A stretch of 42,057 nucleotides of DNA from a virus. The notes under the pieces were generated by a model. That model did not search any database. It worked only from the letters and a program-made list of their open reading frames with translations, and was not told the DNA's origin. The position numbers and the translations under genes were made by a program. Shown here piece by piece: positions 3,376 to 34,425 of the stretch. The stretch lies in UHGV virus genome UHGV-0204900; one strand, given 5' to 3'. The stretch's first letter is position 1; every line of letters begins with the position of its first letter.

Positions 3376-4626
3376 GTGATTTTTAAGAATATAAATAACC
3401 CTAAGAGGGGTAGTGAAAATGAAAGAAGAGCCAGTTGGTATAATTATTATGCTGGTTTTTCTCATACATTTGTCAGAAATTTAATAAATGATCTGCATTT
3501 ATCAAAAGAATCAGTCATTTTAGATCCTTGGAATGGTTCTGGTGCAACTACATATGCTGCTAGTATTGAAGGTTACCAATCCATTGGAAGTGATTTGAAT
3601 CCACCAATGTATGTTATTGCTAAGTCTAAAATGGCAGATAAAAACGATGTAATAAATGCACTGGCTAAAATAAAAAAAATGAGAGTCAATGTATTCTCAT
3701 GTATTTTTGATTCAGATGATTATTTAAATAATTGGTTTGTTCATCAAACTGCTAGTTATATTAGATATATAGATTTTTTCATCTGTAAAAAGATGAATGT
3801 TGATATAAATACAAAGTTACATCTGCTTAGTAAAGTTGATTGTTTATTATATGTGGCATTATTTAATACTATTAGATTATTAATAAAATCATTTGTTTCT
3901 TCAAATCCAACATGGATAAAAAAGGCAAAGGGAGCTAATAATAAGATAAGAGTTGATAATAGATTTATTAAACAATCCATCATTAACTTACTTAATGAAA
4001 AATTAGATGTTGATGATTTTCCTTTAATTAATAAGGATGCTTTTTTCTTATCTGAAGATGTGAAAAATTTATCTCTTAAAGATAAATCTATAGATATTGT
4101 TATTACATCCCCACCTTATTGTACTCGAATTGATTATGGCATTGCCACTTCACCGGAATCAGCGGTATTATATGGTAATAATCCTATTCAGATAGAAGAA
4201 ATGCGTCGTAGATTAATGGGAAGAACTACAATTGATAAAACATTCTATGATGGAATATCTTTTAGTAGTACTACGGATGAATTTTTATCGTCTATATATG
4301 AGCATAAATCAAGGGCTTCAAACACCTATTACTACAAGAATTTTTATCAATATTTTTTAGATCTTAATTTATCATTAATTGAAATTAATCGAGTTCTTAA
4401 GAATGATGGTTATTTTGTGTGTGTTGTGCAAGATTCATATTATAAAGAAATTCATTGTGACTTATCTCAGATTATTACTGAATTACTTGATAGCAACGGA
4501 TTCAAATTACTACAAAAGAAAGAGTTTGAATCTACAGTTAATATGGCTAACCTAAATAATAAATCAAAGATTTATCGTGATAAAATGGTAGCTACCGAAT
4601 ATGTGTTAATCTTTTCGCGAGGATAG
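3376..4626 (+). CDS. DNA methyltransferase (N6-adenine or N4-cytosine; motif I DPWNGSGAT, motif IV SPPY)
   Basis: 416 aa with a FxGxG-type AdoMet motif and an SPPY catalytic motif. No in-frame ATG before motif I, so start is GTG at 3376 with a weak RBS (start uncertain). Very AT-rich codon usage shared with the next two genes. A 4-nt gap separates it from the downstream gene. Confidence 0.8.
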   Translation: MIFKNINNPKRGSENERRASWYNYYAGFSHTFVRNLINDLHLSKESVILDPWNGSGATTYAASIEGYQSIGSDLNPPMYVIAKSKMADKNDVINALAKIKKMRVNVFSCIFDSDDYLNNWFVHQTASYIRYIDFFICKKMNVDINTKLHLLSKVDCLLYVALFNTIRLLIKSFVSSNPTWIKKAKGANNKIRVDNRFIKQSIINLLNEKLDVDDFPLINKDAFFLSEDVKNLSLKDKSIDIVITSPPYCTRIDYGIATSPESAVLYGNNPIQIEEMRRRLMGRTTIDKTFYDGISFSSTTDEFLSSIYEHKSRASNTYYYKNFYQYFLDLNLSLIEINRVLKNDGYFVCVVQDSYYKEIHCDLSQIITELLDSNGFKLLQKKEFESTVNMANLNNKSKIYRDKMVATEYVLIFSRG

Positions 4627-4630
4627 TGGA

Positions 4631-5752
4631 ATGAGTACAGAAGTAATATTAACTGAAATAGAATCCAAAATAGAAAAAGTTCATACACAGAGCTTAGATT
4701 TATCTTTTAATGAACTTCTTAGTATGTATGAAAATGAAGAATTAGATATTAGTCCTGATTATCAACGCTTATTTAGATGGTCCGAAGGAGCAAGATCAAG
4801 GTTTATTGAATCTTTAATATTAGAGATGCCTGTACCTCCTATTTATGTAGTGGAGACAGACTCAGGTGCTTATCAGCTTATTGATGGATTACAGCGCTTT
4901 TCATCTTATTTACATTTAAGAGGAGAACTTGATGCTAAACATATGGGAGTAAATAAAGGTGATTTCTTAATTTTATCAGATTGTGACATAATTGATTCTA
5001 TCAATGGTATGACATTTAATGATTTACCTATGGCTTTAAAAATAAAGTTAAAACGTTCTTTTGTAAGAGTTGAAATAGTAAGAAAAGGAAGTGATAAAAA
5101 ATTCAAATATCATATGTTTAAGAGATTAAATACAGGTGGTGAAGCATTAACAGAACAACAGATTAGAAATTGTACGATAAGAATGTTAGATCCTAAGTTT
5201 AATGACTTTATAATAATGTTATCAGAAACAGATGATTATCTGAACTGTATAGCAAATTTGTCTGATTCTCAAAGATATGGATCTTATGATCAAGAACTTG
5301 TATTAAGATATTTTTCTTTAAAGAATAATAAAGATGGATTTAAACATGATGTTGCAGATTTCATGACTGAATATATGGAATCTGTAGCAGGAGAGACAGT
5401 GGATTTTAATTATGACGAAAATGAACAAAATTTTCTAAAGGTATTTAAATTATTTAATAAAGCTCATGGTGATAAAATATTCGGAAGATTGAATAGCCAG
5501 AATAATAAATTGCAATCTAATTTTGGAATATACCATTTTGAATCACTTTGTATGGGGATTCAGTGTGTTCTAGATAGAATAGATATAAATAATGAAGAGC
5601 ATATCAAAAAATTTTCTCAAGCAGTAATTTCTTTAAAAGGTAATGCCGATTTTAAAACAGAAACAACTGGAGGAGGAAAAAATTCTACTGGATTGTTAAA
5701 TAAACGAATAAAAATTGCGGAGGGATTCTTTTCGGAGGCTTTCAGTGACTAG
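4631..5752 (+). CDS. DUF262 (ParB/Srx-like, GmrSD N-terminal-type) domain protein
   Basis: 373 aa with the hallmark PDYQR...W motif and IDGLQRFSS (DGQQR-type) motif. GAGGA RBS 9 nt upstream. AT-rich. Confidence 0.85.
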   Translation: MSTEVILTEIESKIEKVHTQSLDLSFNELLSMYENEELDISPDYQRLFRWSEGARSRFIESLILEMPVPPIYVVETDSGAYQLIDGLQRFSSYLHLRGELDAKHMGVNKGDFLILSDCDIIDSINGMTFNDLPMALKIKLKRSFVRVEIVRKGSDKKFKYHMFKRLNTGGEALTEQQIRNCTIRMLDPKFNDFIIMLSETDDYLNCIANLSDSQRYGSYDQELVLRYFSLKNNKDGFKHDVADFMTEYMESVAGETVDFNYDENEQNFLKVFKLFNKAHGDKIFGRLNSQNNKLQSNFGIYHFESLCMGIQCVLDRIDINNEEHIKKFSQAVISLKGNADFKTETTGGGKNSTGLLNKRIKIAEGFFSEAFSD

Positions 5753-6437
5753 TGAGGAATTTTTAACACAGATAGAATTAGATAGGGCATGGAGAGAAGA
5801 AGAAATTCGAACTATGAATAATATCTTAACAGAGCTGAAGGATGATAATGATAAAAATAAATTAAGGCGGGCAATTATTTGTTTGCTCTATGCTCACATT
5901 GAAGGTTTTGTTAAATTTTCATTTGGTTTGTACATAGAATCAATTAATGGATTAAAGTTAAAATGTCAAGATGTTAAACCTATATTAATAGCTGCTGTTT
6001 ATCATAAGGATTTTAGTAAACTCACAGACCCTGATGCTAAAAGTAAATTATTCACTAAAAAAGCACAAGAAGATAAATATATTAGAAGAATTTGTTTGCA
6101 AGAAGAGTTTTTTGAAAGAATTAATGATGTTTTTAATTCTGAAATAAAAATAGATGACGGGTACATTAATACAGAAAATAATGTGGGTAGGGAAGTTCTT
6201 GAGAAGCTACTATATCAAGTGGGTTTATCTCATAAGTCTTTAGATAATACAATTGGACCATTATCTAGGTTATTAAATAAAAGAAATGATATTGCTCATG
6301 GAACAGATAAAAGTTCCATTAAAGCCGAACATTATGATGAATATTTCAAGTGTGCTTTAGGTATCATGAAAGAGCTTACAAGTACATTATTTTTAGCATA
6401 TAGTAAAAAGGATTACTTGAAGCAATCTATAGTTTAA
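5745..6437 (+). CDS. HEPN-domain protein (Rx4H motif RNDIAHG; MAE_28990/MAE_18760-like)
   Basis: About 230 aa. Conserved R-x4-H in LLNKRNDIAHGT near the C-terminus. Probable GTG start at 5745 with a GGAGG RBS 6 nt upstream, overlapping the DUF262 stop by 8 nt (GTGACTAG). The ORF track gives a TTG start at 5715. Confidence 0.7.
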   Translation: MTSEEFLTQIELDRAWREEEIRTMNNILTELKDDNDKNKLRRAIICLLYAHIEGFVKFSFGLYIESINGLKLKCQDVKPILIAAVYHKDFSKLTDPDAKSKLFTKKAQEDKYIRRICLQEEFFERINDVFNSEIKIDDGYINTENNVGREVLEKLLYQVGLSHKSLDNTIGPLSRLLNKRNDIAHGTDKSSIKAEHYDEYFKCALGIMKELTSTLFLAYSKKDYLKQSIV

Positions 6438-8461: not shown

Positions 8462-9508
8462 ATGAAAAGTACTGTGAATTTAAACAGTGTGAATTTAGTC
8501 AATGATGACTCACTCAGCTATATAAAAACACTTCCCGATAATTATATTGATTTAATCGCAACTGACCCGCCTTACTTTCAGGTGAAGTCTTGTAGTTGGG
8601 ATAATCAGTGGGAAAACGTAACATCATATTTATCTTGGCTTGATGAAATGCTTGCAGAATTTTGGCGGGTATTAAAGCCTAACGGTAGTCTTTACATTTT
8701 TTGCGGTTCTAAACTAGCGTCGGATACAGAATTACTCGTCCGTGAAAGATTTAATATTCTAAGTCACATTGTATGGGCTAAACCATCAGGGCCTTGGCGC
8801 AGGGCATGTAAAGCTGATTTACGCAGTTTTTTCCCAAGCACTGAAAGAATTTTATTTGCTGAGCATTATCAAAGCCCATACAAGGGCAAAAGTAGTACCT
8901 ATCTTCAGCAATGCAAAGAGCTTAAAGAAAACATATTTAAGCCTTTAATTGAGTATTTTAAATTTGCACGTGAAACATTAGGAATAACTGCAAAAGAAAT
9001 AAAGCAGGCAACAGGTAAGCAGATGGCTTCACACTGGTTTAGTTATAGCCAATGGCAACTACCTAGTGAGTCTGATTACAAAAAACTGCAGGAGTTGTTT
9101 CATCGTGTAGCAAGTGAAAAATTCAGTAGTAATCCTTTAAATCGTGATCATGCTGATTTGATAGAGATTCAGGCTTCTCTTAGTCGAGAGTACCAGGAGC
9201 TTGCTGAACAATATCAATTATTACGTCGTCCTTTTTCTGTCACCGTTGATGTTCCTTATACCGATGTGTGGACGTATCCACCTGTGCAATATTACGCAGG
9301 TAAACACCCTTGTGAAAAGCCAGCAGAGATGATGGAACACATTATTCGTTCAAGTAGTCGCGAAGGTGATCTAGTTGCTGATTTCTTTATGGGGTCGGGT
9401 GCAACACTAAAATCTGCATTAAAACTAAGTCGTCGAGTTCTTGGAGTTGAACTTGAGAAAGAACGATTTGAACAAACAAGAGAGGAAATAAATAACATGA
9501 AGTCATAA
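8462..9508 (+). CDS. DNA methyltransferase, beta-class (motif IV DPPY N-terminal, motif I FMGSGAT C-terminal); likely orphan anti-restriction MTase
   Basis: IATDPPYF precedes ADFFMGSGATLKSA, the circularly permuted order typical of phage ParB-less N6A/N4C MTases. Core GC content. Confidence 0.85.
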   Translation: MKSTVNLNSVNLVNDDSLSYIKTLPDNYIDLIATDPPYFQVKSCSWDNQWENVTSYLSWLDEMLAEFWRVLKPNGSLYIFCGSKLASDTELLVRERFNILSHIVWAKPSGPWRRACKADLRSFFPSTERILFAEHYQSPYKGKSSTYLQQCKELKENIFKPLIEYFKFARETLGITAKEIKQATGKQMASHWFSYSQWQLPSESDYKKLQELFHRVASEKFSSNPLNRDHADLIEIQASLSREYQELAEQYQLLRRPFSVTVDVPYTDVWTYPPVQYYAGKHPCEKPAEMMEHIIRSSSREGDLVADFFMGSGATLKSALKLSRRVLGVELEKERFEQTREEINNMKS

Positions 9509-9767: not shown

Positions 9768-10043
9768 GTGTATATGCGCATGGAAAAATTGACCAATGCT
9801 ACCTACGGAACGGCTGGCTTAACTGCCTTTTTTGCAAGTCTCTCACTTTATGAATGGGGATTTGTAATAGGGATGGGATTCAGCATGCTCCTTGGATTAG
9901 CAACTTATTTTATGACACAGCGAGAACAGCGGAAACGAACAGCGTTATTTGCTGAATTAGTTCATCGAAATTGTTCTAGTGATCCGCAAGACATAGAAAA
10001 GATAGTTGGCGAGATGCTGACTAAAGCTAAAAAGGACATTTAA
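9768..10043 (+). CDS. holin, two predicted TMDs, dual/triple-start motif MYMRMEK (pinholin-like)
   Basis: 91 aa with two hydrophobic segments (TAGLTAFFASLSLY and FVIGMGFSMLLGLATYF) and a charged C-terminus. Immediately upstream of a SAR endolysin. Confidence 0.7.
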   Translation: MYMRMEKLTNATYGTAGLTAFFASLSLYEWGFVIGMGFSMLLGLATYFMTQREQRKRTALFAELVHRNCSSDPQDIEKIVGEMLTKAKKDI

Positions 10044-10513
10044 TGAACCTAAAACAGAAAGTGACAGCAGTTGCAAGTGCCGGTGCGGTAAGTATTGCGC
10101 TAACAGTGATTGGTTACTTTGAGGGAGTGCGTTATGAACCATACCGTGATGTTGCCGGAATTCTGACGGTTTGTTATGGCCACACTGGAAATGACATCAT
10201 TCAAGGCAAGACATACACACAGCAAGAATGTGACGAGTTACTGCAGAAAGACTTTATTAGAACGCAACAACAAGTTGATGTTCTAGTTAAAGTGCCGGTA
10301 GATGATAAAACAAAAGCCTCTTTATATTCCTTTGCTTTCAATGTGGGCACCACAGCTTTTGCACGTTCTACATTGCTCAAGAAATTAAATGCTGGTGATC
10401 AGTATGGCGCTTGTGAAGAAATGAAACGCTGGGTTTATGCTGGTGGCAAGGTATGGCGAGGGTTAGTCAGTCGTAGAGATGCGGAGTCAGCACTATGTCA
10501 TGGAAACCTTTAA
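10043..10513 (+). CDS. SAR endolysin (T4-lysozyme-like muramidase, GH24)
   Basis: N-terminal weakly hydrophobic Gly/Ala-rich segment VTAVASAGAVSIALTVIG (signal-anchor-release type). Catalytic pattern E-x8-D-x5-T present in YFEGVRYEPYRDVAGILT. Confidence 0.9.
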   Translation: MNLKQKVTAVASAGAVSIALTVIGYFEGVRYEPYRDVAGILTVCYGHTGNDIIQGKTYTQQECDELLQKDFIRTQQQVDVLVKVPVDDKTKASLYSFAFNVGTTAFARSTLLKKLNAGDQYGACEEMKRWVYAGGKVWRGLVSRRDAESALCHGNL

Positions 10514-10655: not shown

Positions 10656-11117
10656 ATGAAGCACTGGAAACTTTACATTGTCATTGTGATAGTGGGGATT
10701 ATCGCTGGTGGTTGTGTGCTGATTAACACGCAAGCTGAAAAAATTAACACGCTGACAGAAAACAACAAAGAACTTACTACCACACTCGAAGAGCAAAAGG
10801 CTATCAATGCTGATTATCAAGTACGTATAGAGCGACTAAATCAGCTTGATACAAGGCACACACAGGAGCTTGTTAATGCAAAGAATGAAATTAGTCGCTT
10901 GCGTGATATTAGTGAGCGTAATCCTGAGCGGGTGTACATCAAAGCCGAATGTCCAAAATCCGAAGGCGTTACGACCTCCGGCGTGGCTAATGCAACCACC
11001 GCCCGACCTACTGACACCGCTATCAGAAATTATTGGTTACTCAGAGAGCGAATTGCGCAGTCAGAGCAAATAATCTTAGGGCTACAAGATTACATTAGAG
11101 CGGAGTGTGCTCAATGA
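10656..11117 (+). CDS. i-spanin Rz
   Basis: N-terminal TM segment followed by a coiled-coil periplasmic domain. Contains an embedded +1-frame lipoprotein ORF. Confidence 0.8.
   Translation: MKHWKLYIVIVIVGIIAGGCVLINTQAEKINTLTENNKELTTTLEEQKAINADYQVRIERLNQLDTRHTQELVNAKNEISRLRDISERNPERVYIKAECPKSEGVTTSGVANATTARPTDTAIRNYWLLRERIAQSEQIILGLQDYIRAECAQ
10885..11073 (+). CDS. o-spanin Rz1 (embedded lipoprotein)
   Basis: Lies in the +1 frame inside Rz. Signal peptide with an LSGC lipobox, Pro-rich mature part. Start taken at MKLVAC; the track's ORF starts earlier at 10846. Confidence 0.7.
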   Translation: MKLVACVILVSVILSGCTSKPNVQNPKALRPPAWLMQPPPDLLTPLSEIIGYSESELRSQSK

Positions 11118-11454: not shown

Positions 11455-12465
11455 ATGGCAAAACCGGATTGGGGGATGCTACAACAACAGTTCCTCGCCG
11501 AACATGCTATAACAGGAATATCCCCTAAAGAGTGGTGTGAATCGCAAGGACTAAACTATTCAACAGCACGACGATATATCAAAATATCCAGTGCGCAGAA
11601 TGCGCAAAAAACTGCGCACAAGAAATTGCGCACTGCGCAGAAAAAAGAATGCGCAAAAGAGCCAATGCGCAATAGTGATATACCAACTGCGCAGAGTAAT
11701 GAATCAAGTAATGCGCACGATGATGAAAACACGTTTAGTCTGCGCAATTACGGGCTAACAGAACAACAGATTAAATTTGTTAGTGAATACCTTATCGACT
11801 TAAATCGAACAGGAGCATATAAGAGAGCCGGTTATAAAGGCGAAGGAAATACAGCTTATGTCAATGCTACTCGAATGCTAAGAAATGCTAAGGTTTCACG
11901 AGCAATCACAGACGCATTAGCAGAACGGGAACGTAGAACAGAGATAACCCAAGATGCTGTATTAAAAATATGGTGGGATATTGCAACGGCAGACGTTAAC
12001 GAGCTGACCGAATACCGACGATTATGTTGCCGTCATTGCTGGGGCTTTGGTTTTAATTACCAGTGGCGTGATTCGATAGAGTTTGAAGATGCTATTAAGA
12101 AAGCGCTTACAGCCAATAAACCTCCTCCACAAGATGTGGGTGGTTACGGTTACGATGAAACATTAGATCCAAATCCTGATTGTCCTCGCTGTAACGGTGC
12201 CGGTATTGGTCGTGCGCATTTTCATGATACGCGTGATTTAACAGGGCCAGCTCGTCGAGTATTTGCGGGAGTGAAAGAAGGTAAGTTTGGTATTGAGGTT
12301 ATTACTCGTAATCAAGATGAAGCACTTAAAATGGTTGCACAACATTTAGGTATGCTGAAGAACAAGACGGAATTAACCGGTGCCGATGGTGGGCCTATTA
12401 AAACAGAGGTTGCTAACATGTCACCTCAAGAAGCATCTGACGCATATAAGCAAATCATGGGGTAA
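11455..12465 (+). CDS. terminase small subunit
   Basis: N-terminal HTH, then a Terminase_2-like block LTEQQIKFVSEYLIDLNRTGAYKRAGYKGEGNTAY. Contains a dense TGCGCA array (candidate pac). Upstream of TerL. Confidence 0.8.
   Translation: MAKPDWGMLQQQFLAEHAITGISPKEWCESQGLNYSTARRYIKISSAQNAQKTAHKKLRTAQKKECAKEPMRNSDIPTAQSNESSNAHDDENTFSLRNYGLTEQQIKFVSEYLIDLNRTGAYKRAGYKGEGNTAYVNATRMLRNAKVSRAITDALAERERRTEITQDAVLKIWWDIATADVNELTEYRRLCCRHCWGFGFNYQWRDSIEFEDAIKKALTANKPPPQDVGGYGYDETLDPNPDCPRCNGAGIGRAHFHDTRDLTGPARRVFAGVKEGKFGIEVITRNQDEALKMVAQHLGMLKNKTELTGADGGPIKTEVANMSPQEASDAYKQIMG
11592..11746. repeat. array of 10 palindromic TGCGCA hexamers in 155 bp inside terS
   Basis: Copies at 11592, 11601, 11613, 11628, 11635, 11650, 11666, 11688, 11712 and 11741. 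They fall in all three reading frames, so the signal is at DNA level. Confidence 0.8.
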
Positions 12466-12672
12466 ATTGATAAAAACAGCGGTTTCATTGAAAATTTAGG
12501 CTATGCAAAATCTCACCTATTTTATGCACGTTTTATTCATTCTAATTTGTACTCATCTCAATAGATAACTTAGATAAATAGCGCTTACACATAGAAAACA
12601 CACTCAGTTGATTTTCGGTAGGGCGTGTAAGCACTATTATGTTAAATAGACATTGAATTAAAGAAATTTACT

Positions 12673-14277
12673 ATGCCTATCCCATTCCCGTTTGATTTTA
12701 AAAATCCTGACTACCCGCAGGTGTTTGAATGGCGAATGGAACGATTAACACGAATTCGCCAAAATCCAGAATCTATACCAGCACTCAACGCTTATTACAA
12801 AGATAATCCAGCCCAATTTATTATTGATTGGGGAATGACGTATGACCCACGAAACCCTGAGCGAGGTTTACCTTCCTATATTCCATTTTTACTATTCCCT
12901 AGACAAGAGGAATGGATTGAGTGGTTTATAGAACGTTGGAAAGGGCAAGAACCTGGTATCACAGAAAAGACGCGTGATATGGGTATGAGTTGGCTAACTG
13001 TCGGCTTATCTTGCACAGTATGTAATTTCAATCGTGGCATTAGTGTTGGTATAGGCAGTCGTAAAGAAGAGTATGTCGATAAAATTGGGGTACCTAAATC
13101 ACTGTTAGAGAAAGCCCGTATCTTTATGTCTTATCTGCCGGCTGAATTTCGTTTTGGTTGGAATAGAAACAAAGACGCACCACACATGAGAATAAAATTT
13201 CCTCATACTGACTCAATCATATCGGGTGAGTGTGGTGATGGTATTGGGCGAGGGGATCGCGTAAGTTTTTATATTGTTGATGAGTCCGCTTTCCTCGAAC
13301 GGCCATCTCTTATTGACGCTTCTTTATCAGCCACAACTAACTGCAGACAAGATATTTCAACGCCAAATGGAAATGCTAATAGCTTCGCTATCCGCAGACA
13401 TAGCGGAAAAATACCAGTATTTACATTCCACTGGAGAGAAGATCCAAGGAAAGACCAAGCATGGTACGACAAGCAGGTTGAAGTTTTAGATCCCGTTACA
13501 GTCGCTCAAGAAATAGATATAGATTACAACGCATCCGTTGAAGGGGTGATTATTCCTTCTGCATGGATACAGTCTGCAATAGACGCACATATCAAGTTGG
13601 GAATTGAACCAACAGGTAAGCGCCTTGGTGCTCTTGATGTGGCTGACGAAGGTATAGATAAAAATGCCTTTGTATCGGGTAAAGGAATATTGGTAGATGC
13701 TTGTGAAGAGTGGAGTGGAAAAGGTGCTGATATCTACCAAACCGTGGTTAAGGCAATCAATTTAGCCAGTGATTATGGTTGTAGTGAGGTTCTATATGAT
13801 GCTGATGGCATTGGTGCCGGTTGTCGTGGTGATTCAAGACAAGTCAATGAAGAACGGAAGTTAGCTGGTTTAAATCCTGTTACCTTTTCTGCTTACAAAG
13901 GAAGTTCTGGTGTACTAAATCCGGATAAGGTTTTAATGAAAGATGCCAGCGGTAGAAATATTACGAATAAGGACTTTTTCCAAAACTTTAAATCTCAATC
14001 TTGGTGGCATTTGCGGACATTGTTTTTAAATACCCATAGAGCTGTTAATGGTATGAAATATGATCCTGATGAGATTATTTCGTTATCTTCAAAGATGTCA
14101 TCTTTATCGAGATTAACTTCCGAACTCTGCCAGCCAACGTACACAAAAAACTCAGCAGGTAAAATCGTCGTTGATAAAAAACCTAACGGTGCTAAGTCTC
14201 CAAACTGTGCTGATGGCTTAGTCATTCTTAAATCTCCTGAGAAAAGAAACGGTAGTTTCTTCACAACTAAGAGGTAA
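12673..14277 (+). CDS. terminase large subunit
   Basis: 534 aa. Walker-B-like [13 protein letters not shown] motif, C-terminal nuclease-like acidic residues. Follows terS. Confidence 0.85.
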
Positions 14278-14281
14278 TTCT

Positions 14282-15784
14282 ATGTGGTGGCCGTTTAAGA
14301 GGCGAAAAACAGAACCACTCGCACCGGTTAAACGGTCAGCATTCACAACTGACTTATATCCTGCGCTGGCGCGAGAACAGGGCTTTGATGGGATTAATTT
14401 ACCCCAACCCACAATTGCAGGTGTTGCGATGGATAGCATTGATAGCTATGTGCCCTCATTTAAAGGTGAGCAGGTTTACGGTGTGCCTGAGTCACAGGCC
14501 TCATGGTATGCCTCACAAATGTTTATCGGCAACAATATGTGTGCGGTTATCGCCAAACATTGGCTGGTGGATAAAGCCTGCAATATGCCCGCGCGTGATG
14601 CGATACGTCAGGGTTACGATATTGATTGTGATAACGACGATGATCGCGCTATCAGCAAAAAGCTCCGCAAACGTGATAAAAAATACCGCATTACACATCA
14701 GCTGAAAGAACTGGTTCATTTCGGGCGTGTATATGGCGGTCGTTTAGCGTTATTTGTTGTTGAGACATCAAACCCGAAAGAGTGGTATGAAAACCCGTTT
14801 AATATCGATGGTGTGACCAAAGGCATGTACAAGGGGATTAAACAGATTGATCCCCAATGGGTAACGGCTGATTTAACGGATGCCAATGTTCAAGACCCTG
14901 CGAGTATGGACTTCTACGAGCCGACATATTATGTGATTGGTGGGCGTAAATATCATAAGTCTCACTTTATTAAGTTTGTGCCGTTTCCTGTGCCGAATGT
15001 CTTGAAGCCAATGTACAACTACTTTGGTGTATCAGTGCCAGAACGTATTTATGAGCGTGTCTACGCTTCAGAACGCACAGCCAATGAAGCGCCACAACTG
15101 GCAATGACCAAGCGTTTACTTACGATGGGGATTGCAGACCTTGAGTCGGCAGATAAGAGCATCATCAATGAAAACATGCTCTATTTTATGGAGATGCGCG
15201 ATAACTACGGTGTGCAAATGACAGGTAGTGAAGATACGGTTCAACAGTTCGATACGTCATTAGCGGATTTAGACGCCACGATTATGACGCAATATCAGCT
15301 GGTGGCATCGGCTTCCAATGTACCCGCGACAAAGCTACTAGGCACTACACCGAAAGGCTTTAACTCAACAGGTGAATACGAAGAGGCTAATTACCGCGAA
15401 GAGCTTGAAAGTATCCAATCAAACGACCTTGAAGAGCTATTACAGCGTCATTACGACATGTTAATGCGTAGTGATGGTTTACCTGTGACAGAAATCTCTA
15501 TCACATGGGCACCACTTGATAGCCCGACGGCTGTTGAGAGTGCGGATATTGAGCTTAAACAAGCACAAGCCGATTCAGCCTATGCAACAACGGGGGCGAT
15601 TGATGGGTTAGATATCCGCAAGAAACTGGCCAGTGATAAAGCATCTAGCTATTACGGTATTGAAGTGAACGAGGCAGATTATGTCGAGGCGAATACGAGT
15701 ACGAACGAAGCGAGCGCAATGGGCAACCTCTCGCCAAGCAGTAATGAAAGGGAAGCCCCTGCAGTATTCAGTAGCGCCCTCTAG
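14282..15784 (+). CDS. portal protein (DUF1073-like)
   Basis: 500 aa, immediately after TerL and before the Mu-F-like head morphogenesis gene. Confidence 0.75.
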   Translation: MWWPFKRRKTEPLAPVKRSAFTTDLYPALAREQGFDGINLPQPTIAGVAMDSIDSYVPSFKGEQVYGVPESQASWYASQMFIGNNMCAVIAKHWLVDKACNMPARDAIRQGYDIDCDNDDDRAISKKLRKRDKKYRITHQLKELVHFGRVYGGRLALFVVETSNPKEWYENPFNIDGVTKGMYKGIKQIDPQWVTADLTDANVQDPASMDFYEPTYYVIGGRKYHKSHFIKFVPFPVPNVLKPMYNYFGVSVPERIYERVYASERTANEAPQLAMTKRLLTMGIADLESADKSIINENMLYFMEMRDNYGVQMTGSEDTVQQFDTSLADLDATIMTQYQLVASASNVPATKLLGTTPKGFNSTGEYEEANYREELESIQSNDLEELLQRHYDMLMRSDGLPVTEISITWAPLDSPTAVESADIELKQAQADSAYATTGAIDGLDIRKKLASDKASSYYGIEVNEADYVEANTSTNEASAMGNLSPSSNEREAPAVFSSAL

Positions 15785-30871: not shown

Positions 30872-32227
30872 ATGACTAAAATATTTAAAACCCCCTTTGC
30901 AACACAAGGGGATAAAACAGTTGTGCCTGTTGAAATACAATCTGATGGTTCTGTCTCTTATACACAAGGTTATGGTTATGATTATGAACGTGACCAAGTT
31001 ACAGACCCTGCCGCTAAAGATATTGAACGTGAAAAAATGAATGGGATATTTCACGATATCACAGAAGCGATTGGCGAAATTCAATCCTTTGGGTTTCCTA
31101 AATGGGATGAAGCCGGTAAGCCATATGCGATACGCGCTATTGTGTATCATAAAAATAAAGTCTGGCAGTCAAAGATTGAGAATAACAATATCGAACCGGT
31201 TACTGGTAATGCATGGGCAGAGTTAAAAGCGGATGCCACGGCAAGCGATGTGGGCGCATATTCAAAAGGGGAGTCCGATAAACGCTTTCAACCACTAGGC
31301 AATTACACACCATCCGGTTATAGCTACTCAAAGGCAGAAACCGACACCAAATATCAACCAAAGGGTAATTATGCCCCCGCGGGGAACTATGCCAATAAAG
31401 GGGATAGTTACACTAAAACGGAAAGTGACGGACGTTATCAAGCGAAAGGAAGTTACCAACCATCAGGCGATTACGCGACAAATTTAGCACTCAATAGTGG
31501 GCTTAATAATAAGTTTGATAAAGGTAATGTAGTTCAAGGTACGGGAACGTCAACGGTTCATGTGATGAGCCAGAAAGCTTCTACAGATGCTTTTCAACCT
31601 AAGGGAAATTATCAACCTAAAGGTAATTATGCATTAGCCGGTGCTTCATATACGAAGACGGAATCGGATGGTCGATACCAAGCTAAAGGGAGTTATGCAA
31701 CGGCTGGAAGTAGCTATACAAAAGCAGAAAGTGACGGACGTTATCAAGGTAAGGGAAATTACCAACCAGCGGGCAATTATGCGCTAGTAGGAGCATCGTA
31801 TACTAAGGCAGAGTCTGACGGTAAATATCAGGCTAAAGGCAGTTATCAAGCTTCTGGTTACAGTTATTCAAAATCAGAATCAGATAGTAAGTATCAACCT
31901 AAAGGAAATTATGCACCAGCTGGAAATTATGGTGCTAAAAATACTGCAAATAAGGCTCAATCAGGTTGGTGGAAATGTGGAGATACAGGAATTATATATC
32001 AGTGGGCTACAGTAAAAGGTTGTACAACTAGAACGGACTTTAGGTCTTTTCCAATTCCTTTTCCTAATAAGTGTTTATCTGTCTCTGGAAGTTATGTCAA
32101 TGAGGATGACTATGGTCAGGGAGTTTCGATAAAAATAAAAAGTAATAAAGATATGTTAATAATTGCACATGGAGCTAGTGGGGAATGGAAAAATTCTGAA
32201 GTACAATATATAGCTATAGGATATTAA
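30872..32227 (+). CDS. tail fibre protein with tandem phage-fibre repeats
   Basis: 451 aa. About 7 repeats of SYTK(A/T)ESDGRYQAKGSY...GNY (Phage_fiber_2-like) between about aa 128 and 346, followed by a distinct C-terminal domain. Confidence 0.8.
   Translation: MTKIFKTPFATQGDKTVVPVEIQSDGSVSYTQGYGYDYERDQVTDPAAKDIEREKMNGIFHDITEAIGEIQSFGFPKWDEAGKPYAIRAIVYHKNKVWQSKIENNNIEPVTGNAWAELKADATASDVGAYSKGESDKRFQPLGNYTPSGYSYSKAETDTKYQPKGNYAPAGNYANKGDSYTKTESDGRYQAKGSYQPSGDYATNLALNSGLNNKFDKGNVVQGTGTSTVHVMSQKASTDAFQPKGNYQPKGNYALAGASYTKTESDGRYQAKGSYATAGSSYTKAESDGRYQGKGNYQPAGNYALVGASYTKAESDGKYQAKGSYQASGYSYSKSESDSKYQPKGNYAPAGNYGAKNTANKAQSGWWKCGDTGIIYQWATVKGCTTRTDFRSFPIPFPNKCLSVSGSYVNEDDYGQGVSIKIKSNKDMLIIAHGASGEWKNSEVQYIAIGY
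31250..31920 (+). repeat. tandem approx 72-bp coding repeats (fibre repeat units)
   Basis: Protein-level repeats YSKGESDKRFQ / YSKAETDTKYQ / YTKTESDGRYQ / YTKAESDGRYQ / YTKAESDGKYQ / YSKSESDSKYQ. Confidence 0.7.
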
Positions 32228-32232
32228 ATGAT

Positions 32233-32254
32233 AAAGGGGATTAACTTCCCCTTT
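32233..32254. terminator. bidirectional intrinsic terminator between convergent fibre and acyltransferase genes
   Basis: AAGGGGA TTAACTT TCCCCTT with flanking A/T runs. Confidence 0.55.
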
Positions 32255-32257
32255 GAT

Positions 32258-33286
32258 TTATACTTTTTTTAACAAATTCACTACTATTTTTTTCATAGGT
32301 AATTCATAGTATTTATAAATAAATATACTACCTAAAATACTTATTGTTAAAATAGAAAGTAACATATAAAAATCACTGCCAAAAAATATTCTATTCTCGA
32401 TAGAAAATCTAATGATTAATTGGTGAATCATATACAGTGAAAAACTCGATTCGCCCAATAGAACTAGTGTTTTATGGGATAAAACTTTTGTAATAAATCC
32501 ATTGGAGTATGATAGGGATATTATTAATACAGACATAGGGATTATGTAATAAATGTCAAAGCGATACGCTATATTAACCATGTAAGAATAATATATAAAT
32601 ATTAAAAATAAAGAAATAGACAATATTTGAAATATTATAACTTGATATGTAGGAATATTAAGATTTAACTTATTGAACCTTAGTCTAAAAATTAAAACAC
32701 CGATAATAAAGTCAGGGAGTCTCAATATTGGTGATATGTATATGTATGCATGAATGGCTTTCTCGCTAATATTTATTTCTGATAATAGTATTTTTAAAAT
32801 AAGTATGAATATAGTTACTTTTATAAGTGTATTTGAACTTCTAGTGATAAGAAAAGGAAAAAGGAAGTAAAAGAATAATTCAACAGAAATACTCCATGAC
32901 GGAGCGTTGAGTGAAAAATAATAACTTGCTTTAGGTATTAAAGCCTGTAAAAGAAAAATGTTTGATAATATTTCTTTTACAGATTCATTTTGATATAAAA
33001 ATAATAATGTAAATAATAAAGTTAAAAGATGAAGTGGGTATATTCTAGCAATCCGTGCTGTATAAAAATCGAATTTATTTTTCTCACCATCTAATAATTT
33101 TTCTTGATAAGAATAAGACAATACAAAACCAGATAAAATAAAAAATAAAGTAACACCAATAAACCCTTCTTTTACATATATAAAATCAAACGGTGTATTT
33201 TTAAAGAAGTCTAAATGTGAAAATAAAACAAATATAGCCGCAAAAAATCTTATAGAAGTTAATGGTAGAATATGGCTTTTATTCAC
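32258..33286 (-). CDS. membrane acyltransferase, Acyltransferase_3 / OafA-like (candidate O-antigen acetylase, lysogenic conversion)
   Basis: 342 aa multi-TM protein. The N-terminus ILPLTSIRFFAAIFVLFSHL matches the acyltransferase-3 family. GTG start. Very AT-rich. Minus strand, between the fibre gene and att. Confidence 0.8.
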   Translation of the reverse strand: MNKSHILPLTSIRFFAAIFVLFSHLDFFKNTPFDFIYVKEGFIGVTLFFILSGFVLSYSYQEKLLDGEKNKFDFYTARIARIYPLHLLTLLFTLLFLYQNESVKEILSNIFLLQALIPKASYYFSLNAPSWSISVELFFYFLFPFLITRSSNTLIKVTIFILILKILLSEINISEKAIHAYIYISPILRLPDFIIGVLIFRLRFNKLNLNIPTYQVIIFQILSISLFLIFIYYSYMVNIAYRFDIYYIIPMSVLIISLSYSNGFITKVLSHKTLVLLGESSFSLYMIHQLIIRFSIENRIFFGSDFYMLLSILTISILGSIFIYKYYELPMKKIVVNLLKKV

Positions 33287-33301
33287 GACAAACCTTATGA
33301 A

Positions 33302-33638
33302 TAGATTGGTTGTTATTATTGCCTCATTCTATCATATTTGCGCATAATCACTAATCCTCTATGGCATTCATACAATTTATTTTTAGTCTAATTTTTGGTC
33401 ATTTTATTGTGTTCAAAAAATTCTTCCAACTTCTCAAACAAATCCCTCGCCACAGCCTCCGTCATATACGTCCTCATTGGCTCCCGTCTAACATCTTTCA
33501 TTTTAAACGTGCTCTCATCAAACATTGGATCAGAAAAGATAATATCCATAAACAGATAGCCATAGGGTTATCTACAGATAAACGGGCCTCTTCTAACTGA
33601 GCAATATATTCAGCATTATTGGTTTCAAGTTTAATCAT
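33302..33638 (-). pseudogene. frameshift-disrupted small ORF (MIKLETNNAEYIAQLEEARLS... / ...MRTYMTEAVARDLFEKLEEFF)
   Basis: Two consecutive minus-strand reading frames (46 aa and 53 aa) would join into an approx 84-aa product with a single indel near 33555. The annotated plus-strand ORF 33361-33600 is probably its antisense artefact. Confidence 0.3.
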
Positions 33639-33823
33639 GGCACCACCTATTTAACTGTGTTTTTATACAGTAATTTATATAGGGTAATGGGTAGGATAGC
33701 AAGTTTAAAATTGCAAATTTATGCATGTGGTAATACAGAGATAAGTGAGGAATTTTTAGTGATAATCCATTGTAGTTTTACCCCAGTTTTACCCCTATTT
33801 TACCCCTCGTAAATTTCAGGCAT

Positions 33824-33853
33824 AAAAAAACCAACCGTAAGAGGTTGGTTTTT
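33824..33853. terminator. bidirectional intrinsic terminator downstream of the tRNA-Pro 3' fragment
   Basis: A7 run, then AACCAACC GTAAGA GGTTGGTT, then T5. Lies just 3' (on the minus strand) of the CCA end of the partial tRNA. Confidence 0.65.
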
Positions 33854-33864
33854 CTAAAGAATTT

Positions 33865-33911
33865 TGGTCGGCATGATAGGATTTGAACCTACGACCCCCG
33901 ACACCCCATGA
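33865..33911 (-). other. attP core: 3' 47 nt of a tRNA-Pro gene (T-arm GGTTCAAATCC, acceptor stem, CCA)
   Basis: Reverse complement CATGGGGTGTCGGGGGTCGTAGGTTCAAATCCTATCATGCCGACCA closely resembles the 3' portion of enterobacterial tRNA-Pro (proK-type), but no 5' half is present. Typical of phage attachment sites that reconstitute a target tRNA. Confidence 0.7.
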
Positions 33912-34425
33912 AACCGACTTTAATTTGTCTAACACTTTGATTATAAATATAAATAATACATTTGCATGTAATTACACACAGTGCTAGATATACAAAATAT
34001 GCATTATAAGAATCAATGGGTTAAGGTGAGTTTTACCACTATATTTATACCTGTTAGCTCAGGTTTGAGCTAACAGGTTTCGTAGGTAGAATATAGCTAA
34101 ACTTAACGATCTAAGTGAAAAGCGGACATTGTATTCGCAAGATAATATGAAATCATTGAAGATTAATGATTTTTCCCTATTTAAATTAGGTAGTACTAAT
34201 TGTTGCTAATATTATTAGAAATTTCACCTAATCAGACTGATTAACAAAAAATATACGATATCAAATAATTAAATTAATTTTTTGGTATATTATATTAATT
34301 CGTTAAAACACAGTAATCCGCTTTTTCACAGAAATTAAACTACCATTTTACTGTGTTTGTATATTGCTTGATTTTTAAGCATGATAATAATAGCTGTGTA
34401 ATGAAACTCGTCTAAGGGAGCAGTT

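Follow-up and report, generated by a model that had tools for sequence, protein, structure and literature searches.

Why should the gene for a small terminase subunit be punctuated by one short palindrome? This question is raised by the UHGV virus genome UHGV-0204900, of which one strand of 42,057 nucleotides (hereafter the window) was analysed. Its terS gene carries ten exact copies of TGCGCA within 155 bp (Table 1), as a first-pass annotation made from the sequence had pointed out, and matches to Pfam and PHROG families confirm that the gene encodes the small terminase TerS. The start-to-start spacings (9, 12, 14, 7, 16, 16, 22, 24 and 29 bp) agree with the irregular intervals of 7-29 bp given there. 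The claim that every copy lies in an (A/C)TGCGCA(A/C) context does not hold, because only six of the ten fit it: G precedes one copy (at 11591), T another (at 11626), and G follows three. We suggest that the ten hexamers are probably binding sites for the N-terminal helix-turn-helix (HTH) domain of the very TerS protein that the gene encodes, and that together they would form the recognition part of pac, in a headful-packaging array of the type known from phage P1.

How exceptional is such a cluster, and what does it encode? TGCGCA occurs 22 times in the window, with 12 copies scattered over the 41.9 kb outside the array. At the frequency seen outside the array, 155 bp would be expected to contain 0.044 copies, as against the ten observed, and across 300 shuffles of the window the densest 150-bp span held two. 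The array spans nucleotides 138-292 of terS (codons 46-98) and follows directly upon the HTH domain (residues 1-45, the N-domain). In the AlphaFold2 model of full-length TerS, residues 1-44 have a predicted local distance difference test score (pLDDT) of 73-87, with helices at residues 6-20, 24-30 and 35-38; modelled alone, the N-domain reaches a pLDDT of 84.6, with helices at residues 6-20, 24-31 and 35-38. By contrast, residues 46-92 stay below 50, and blocks of ten residues average 26-31. On these models, the array codes nearly exactly for a predicted disordered linker between the HTH domain and the Terminase_2 core (PF03592; 103.3 bits against a gathering cut-off of 26.1, E 2.3e-29). Since such a linker would constrain its amino acids only weakly, a DNA signal could be written through it in all three reading frames. 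All three codon phases are in fact used, as had been claimed, with six copies read as xxT-GCG-CAx, three as xTG-CGC-Axx and one as TGC-GCA.

Is the array maintained as DNA or as peptide? It is conceivable that it is a neutral by-product, namely a low-complexity linker or an x-Ala-Gln/His peptide repeat grown by replication slippage, given that six of the ten copies encode x-Ala-Gln/His, that the linker is predicted to be disordered and that its poly-A runs are prone to frameshifts. The use of three frames already speaks against this, and so does the pattern of conservation. Across 95 unique relatives with the same (R-type) class of N-domain, mean column entropy is 0.59 bits in the hexamers and 1.10 bits in the spacers (permutation p 0.00015). 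The corresponding entropies for third positions of codons are 0.63 and 1.24 bits, so that the hexamers are more conserved even than the third positions of the folded N-domain (0.85 bits). Synonymous choice is all but fixed: in eight divergent lineages, the Ala of linker Ala-Gln/His pairs is encoded by GCG in 36 of 37 cases and the preceding codon ends in T in 36 of 37, as compared with 54 of 223 Ala codons and 554 of 2008 codons, respectively, elsewhere in those genes. Moreover, the same N-domain is followed by the array in many other lineages: phages of Klebsiella and E. coli, Aeromonas phiARM81mr, Vibrio phage douglas 12A4, and prophages of Grimontia, Xenorhabdus, Serratia, Erwinia and Tatumella, among others. 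The array persists down to about 50% N-domain identity, where the DNA alignment is lost. In Klebsiella phage 5 LV-2017 the proximal five copies have identical spacing (9, 12, 14, 7), and Klebsiella-type relatives possess a second group of two to three TGCGCA copies about 150 bp downstream. We thus consider a neutral origin exceedingly unlikely. These sequence comparisons show that the array is under selection as DNA and not as a peptide repeat, which is what the first-pass annotation had concluded from the codon phases; a change of reading in Gallibacterium, described below, points the same way. As a separate observation, many prophage copies of terS are frameshifted at poly-A runs inside the array, leaving open reading frames of 50-95 residues with the hexamers kept (L030, L038, L148, L182 and L207; proteins P0001-P0053). 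These frameshifts reflect either prophage decay or homopolymer sequencing error.

What reads the hexamers? An indication comes from a sister class of N-domains, in which this place is occupied by TGCGAA(T)/ATTCGCA repeats, frequently in the form TGCGAATTCGCA. We tabulated 92 unique N-domain sequences and scored an array where at least three copies of a motif were present. Of 65 domains with Arg at residue 39 (YxTARRYIK), 61 were followed by a TGCGCA array, none by a TGCGAA/TTCGCA array and four by neither; all 27 domains with Lys39 (YxTAKRYIK) were followed by a TGCGAA/TTCGCA array, and no TGCGCA array was found among them. Residue 39 is the sole position among residues 6-43 at which the Arg/TGCGCA and Lys/TGCGAA classes have disjoint residues. 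The sister motif is not self-complementary and shows a bias in orientation, with 84 forward and 47 reverse copies. In a Gallibacterium faecale prophage (L190:1162-1893), a Lys39 domain precedes six forward copies of TGCGAA and no reverse copy, in the context AACTGCGAAA. Five of these six are read as Asn-Cys-Glu, whereas the corresponding copies in enteric phages are read as Ala-Asn; the peptide differs while TGCGAA is retained, and therefore it is the motif, not the peptide, that is kept.

This co-variation also bears on the idea that the hexamers bind some other protein (for instance, a nucleoid protein of the host, a late regulator of the phage or an enzyme of restriction/modification) and that their location in terS is incidental. 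Palindromes of 6 bp like TGCGCA are read by dimeric regulators and type II enzymes, and the phage itself encodes an N6/N4 DNA methyltransferase (8462-9508; Pfam N6_N4_Mtase, E 2e-43). However, it is precisely with a change at residue 39 of TerS that the motif becomes the non-palindromic TGCGAA(T), and the array accompanies the N-domain of TerS in hosts ranging from Vibrio to Proteus. The scattered copies of TGCGCA are neither depleted nor enriched (12 observed, 11.6 expected). The methyltransferase, for which no link to the arrays emerged, is a common lambdoid adenine methylase with homologues in SfV, mEp460, cdtI and Shiga-toxin (Stx) 2c phages, and SfV, mEp460 and cdtI are not among the tblastn matches of the N-domain; control of the array through methylation by this enzyme was rejected on these grounds. 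A reader other than TerS accordingly seems decidedly improbable.

Do domain and array also travel together? Nucleotide similarity between terS of the window and other phages is confined to the N-domain plus the array's proximal (first) half. We clustered the post-linker regions at a stricter coverage, looser C-terminal clustering having merged all of them through low-complexity acidic tails. Three core families then emerged, each with both types of N-domain (125 Arg and 9 Lys, 10 Arg and 34 Lys, and 2 Arg and 7 Lys). As three unrelated TerS cores each hold both types, the recognition helix and the array must move together between cores. We envision an extended version of this scenario, whereby the N-terminal recognition helix and the array form a portable cassette for pac specificity that has been exchanged between three or more unrelated TerS cores and that has different hexamers in P1 and in Stx phages of the 933W type, and whereby the switch between Arg39 and Lys39 is by itself sufficient to reprogramme TGCGCA to TGCGAA. 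In this full form the proposal is attractive but tentative, and we lean slightly towards doubt.

Is there a precedent for such an arrangement? The first-pass annotation cited pac sites embedded in the terS genes of P22- and SPP1-like headful phages. P1 provides a far closer parallel. P1 pac comprises 161 bp within pacA and contains seven TGATCA/G repeats, and synonymous recoding of these hexamers cut P1 packaging about 9-fold (PMC10028697). In the P1 record, TGATC[AG] is found at pacA nucleotides 194, 201, 213 and 228 and again at 324, 336 and 347 (span 194-352), flanking the annotated pac cleavage sites and a site for integration host factor (IHF). In both systems the gene for the recognition subunit carries, in its 5' part and just downstream of the N-terminal HTH region, many copies of a short palindromic hexamer, and in both the repeats are written through coding sequence. 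The two HTH regions are themselves related. A profile of the N-domain aligns with residues 3-43 of P1 PacA over 41 columns (hhalign probability 91%, E 1e-6), the N-terminal part of TerS matches PHROG 1711, the PacA family (E 1.8e-6), and the N-terminus of P1 PacA matches PHROG 370, which comprises TerS of the 933W type (E 2e-4). By these profile matches, the N-domain is a remote homologue of the PacA N-terminus, with the similarity confined to about 40 residues, and the array is the positional counterpart of P1 pac, homologous as regards the protein domain and different as regards the hexamer. The notion of a candidate array for TerS recognition is hence supported by three lines of comparative evidence: the tracking of residue 39, the homology to PacA and the equivalent position of P1 pac.

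The same comparison helps to judge whether TerS might bind the hexamers for autoregulation of terS and terL, as a roadblock or operator within its own gene, rather than for the start of packaging. The sites do lie in coding sequence shortly downstream of the terS start codon, and the evidence from co-variation and cassette exchange ties the N-domain to the array while being silent on what binding achieves. Against this, the homologous repeats of P1 make up a pac site defined by experiment, ten sites across 155 bp far exceed a typical operator, and TerS proteins are known as packaging-recognition factors (PMC9611059). We therefore regard autoregulation as an improbable purpose of the array.

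The 933W-type Stx phages provide a further instance of the N-domain family. Here the helix reads TARTRIK and is followed by four YGATCATRA repeats and then by two copies of TGCGCA (L157:1501-1800, Escherichia phage vB_EcoP_phi296; identical in 933W, AF125520 L0112). The repeats have a 12-bp period, and each includes a GATC Dam site, as in P1 pac. They are a candidate pac array; being in frame (IDHE/IDHK/TDHE/IDHD), they do not separate selection on DNA from selection on peptide.

How might the array promote packaging? We envision that TerS assembles into a ring through its Terminase_2 core and that each subunit displays its PacA-like HTH domain on a flexible linker of about 50 residues. A single HTH domain would read one hexamer only weakly, whereas many of them, presented to a dense cluster, would bind with avidity. 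The cluster would thus be recognised and the 12 scattered copies would not, because only the cluster could engage many HTH domains at once; this would account for the lack of both depletion and enrichment among the scattered copies. The complex of TerS and array would then recruit the Sf6-like large terminase, a first cut would be made nearby, and a headful series would begin. Packaging would initiate at the array, as had been suggested initially.

Several observations weigh against our interpretation or restrict it. The first group concerns departures from P1. The hexamer is TGCGCA and not TGATCA/G, and as it lacks GATC, there is no obvious Dam control, unlike in P1, where the hexamer includes a GATC Dam site that controls cleavage. 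P1 has four and three copies (HEX4 and HEX3) around a central cleavage region bearing an IHF site; here, ten copies form one graded cluster of widening spacing with no clear two-cluster layout, and no match to the IHF consensus WATCAANNNNTTR was found in or near the array. Rayleigh tests for helical phasing over periods of 9.5-12 bp yielded p >= 0.057, and we claim no phasing. The remainder of TerS is a Terminase_2 core (PHROG 51) rather than a PacA body (PHROG 1711). Moreover, a Foldseek search of the PDB with the N-domain model gave a best E-value of 1; the top matches were all HTH DNA-binding domains, none was significant, and they are unusable as proof. A Pfam search with the isolated N-domain gave no match.

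A second group concerns the link between N-domain and motif. Four hybrids (L091, L092, L093 and L111; terS nucleotides 120-340) combine a Lys39 domain with five to six copies of TGCGAA followed by four to five copies of TGCGCA. Those with full-length genes (L092 and L111) have a TerS core like that of the window, and the hybrid sequences imply that recombination breakpoints fall within the array. In these hybrids it is the distal hexamers that also accompany a K-type domain. Four Arg39 domains, mainly from marine genera, are without an array. For N-domain homologues with a TARRYIK or TAKRYIK helix in Psychromonas (L164), Shewanella (L200), Pseudoalteromonas (L205) and Photobacterium (L214), neither the gene nor the flanking 1.2 kb on each side showed a hexamer array; any sites of recognition that they have lie elsewhere or are unrecognisable. 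Residue 39 is not the sole determinant, because P1 PacA has the same TARRY helix and yet uses TGATCA. Finally, the association of Arg or Lys with the motif could be due in part to linkage and shared ancestry, the N-domain adjoining the array, rather than to recognition.

The third concern is RNA. The transcript of 11570-11770 is predicted to fold with -57.3 kcal/mol (z -3.8 against 200 shuffles), as would be expected if self-complementary hexamers had been selected for an mRNA structure that tunes translation or stability of terS. The improved fold is, however, an automatic outcome of repeated GC-rich palindromes, and the sister TGCGAA(T) motif, not self-complementary and with a biased orientation (84/47, and 6/0 in Gallibacterium), does not agree with such a role. 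Copy number varies from three to ten, and single copies are lost without compensating loss of a partner. We deem selection for mRNA structure very unlikely. A promoter and terminator scan of the array region detected only minus-strand hairpins formed by the palindromes themselves. In the searchable literature on TGCGCA in connection with pac or terminase, on Stx-phage pac sites and on the related phages by name, we found no description of these arrays and no data on virion ends, coverage steps or electrophoretic mobility shifts for any phage bearing the cassette. On balance, a P1-type array bound by TerS still appears to us the probable explanation.

How does the locus relate to other known systems? 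TerS of the window shares with the G1P proteins of SPP1 and SF6 (pacL-pacC-pacR) membership in the Terminase_2 family, and differs from them by an extra PacA-like HTH domain ahead of that core; nor is SPP1 pac made of ten copies of one hexamer. Both phages are headful packagers in which TerS makes multiple contacts flanking the cut, and P22 likewise is a headful phage with its pac signal embedded in terS (PMC9611059), as we propose here. P22 differs in that its gene 3 has a single, non-repeated, asymmetric site of 22 bp and specific binding by its TerS could not be measured in vitro. A sequence search of the PDB with TerS recovered no solved TerS chain, including P22 gp3, at E <= 1. In phage lambda, the repeats R1-R3 of cosB, next to or at the start of the small-terminase gene, are read by the winged HTH of gpNu1 in conjunction with IHF. 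Repeated short elements are thus read by the N-terminal HTH of a small terminase there as well, but lambda is a cos system with fixed ends, and its three elements of 16 bp lie outside coding sequence and depend on IHF. The lambda origin offers another analogy: its iterons, the sites for the N-terminal domain of the O protein, lie inside the inter-domain linker region of gene O, and the ori/gene O module is exchanged as a unit among lambdoid phages. This, however, is an origin of replication rather than a signal for packaging, and its protein belongs to an unrelated family.

Table 1. Features of the terS region and its packaging context (window coordinates)
Feature	Position	Strand	Basis or remark
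terS, small terminase subunit, 336 residues	11455..12465	+	Pfam Terminase_2, PHROG 51, P. mirabilis homologue
PacA-like N-terminal helix-turn-helix domain, residues 1-45	11455..11589	+	AlphaFold2, hhalign, PHROG 1711
Putative recognition helix YSTARRYIK, residues 35-43	11557..11583	+	Arg39 codon 11569-11571; residue 39 separates hexamer classes
Predicted disordered linker hosting the array, residues 46-97	11590..11745	+	AlphaFold2 pLDDT
Ten palindromic TGCGCA hexamers in an array, proposed as sites for the TerS N-domain and as recognition part of pac	11592..11746	none	Cluster statistics, conservation, synonymous constraint
Proximal five hexamers (11592, 11601, 11613, 11627, 11634), conserved core	11592..11639	none	Each kept in 82-96% of 95 R-type sequences
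Distal five hexamers (11650, 11666, 11688, 11712, 11741), subfamily-specific	11650..11746	none	Each kept in 47-60% of the 95 sequences
Terminase_2 core of TerS, residues 101-307	11755..12375	+	Pfam PF03592
terL, large terminase, presumed nuclease/motor recruited by TerS	12673..14277	+	PHROG 2, E 1e-22
Portal protein gene, packaging-module context	14282..15784	+	Pfam Phage_portal_3, E 2e-92

What is the setting of the array? TerS matches PHROG 51 with E 9e-70, and its closest relatives are 'terminase small subunit' entries of Proteus mirabilis at 96% identity (P0054), which makes the window a Proteus prophage or phage. Inside the Terminase_2 domain, an insertion with four cysteines (CCRHC...CPRCNG; window 12025-12192, residues 191-246) may be a zinc ribbon; the cysteines are invariant across 37 homologues, and the structure model has low confidence there. 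A lysis cassette lies upstream of terS, with genes for a lysozyme (10043-10513) and Rz (10656-11117). Downstream, a non-coding gap of 207 bp (12466-12672) with two weak promoter-like matches separates terS from terL; several relatives have these genes overlapping or directly adjoining. The nuclease domain of TerL (residues 290-519) matches PDB entry 8dkr (E 5e-27) and the Sf6 gp2 entries 4idh and 5c10 (E 1e-17 to 5e-18). TerL had no Pfam match at E <= 0.01 and no NCBIfam match, and was recognised only by PHROG 2 and the PDB nuclease domains. Its nearest phage relative is that of Bordetella phage vB_BaM-IFTN9 (65%). Sf6 is a headful packager (PMC9611059), and an Sf6-like nuclease domain agrees with headful packaging, without being proof of it. 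Ends of contigs or records close to terS in IMG/VR and GenBank were considered as possible virion ends and judged to be conventions of assembly or annotation. Elsewhere in the window, two islands of low GC content (4001-6000 and 32001-34000; 0.288 as compared with about 0.40-0.45 in the structural genes) possibly contain accessory or moron genes.

What would such an array mean for the biology of pac phages? The manner in which TerS recognises its own DNA has been described as unclear and controversial, and specific binding has been hard to demonstrate for P22, Sf6, SF6 and SPP1 (PMC9611059). The array family represents a readable case, with a small HTH domain, a motif of six bases that is present up to ten times, and two natural variants, Arg39-TGCGCA and Lys39-TGCGAA, that differ by one residue and one base. 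P1-type pac is already known as such; judging from the sequences, the locus described here would add a P1-type hexamer array on a Terminase_2 small terminase, within a widespread and exchangeable cassette. This cassette is common in prophages of clinically important Enterobacterales, namely Proteus, Providencia, Klebsiella, Salmonella and E. coli, and 933W-like Shiga-toxin phages have N-domains of the same family. Knowledge of the pac signal would help to predict the starting point of transduction (also of lateral transduction, which involves host genes beside prophages), to annotate the packaging strategy from sequence alone, and to design or disable packaging signals in phage delivery vectors, as was done by synonymous recoding in P1 (PMC10028697). 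If the cassette scenario is true, pac phages would have a protein-DNA code for packaging specificity that is simple and readable, and the cassette would possibly bar co-resident prophages from packaging each other's DNA.

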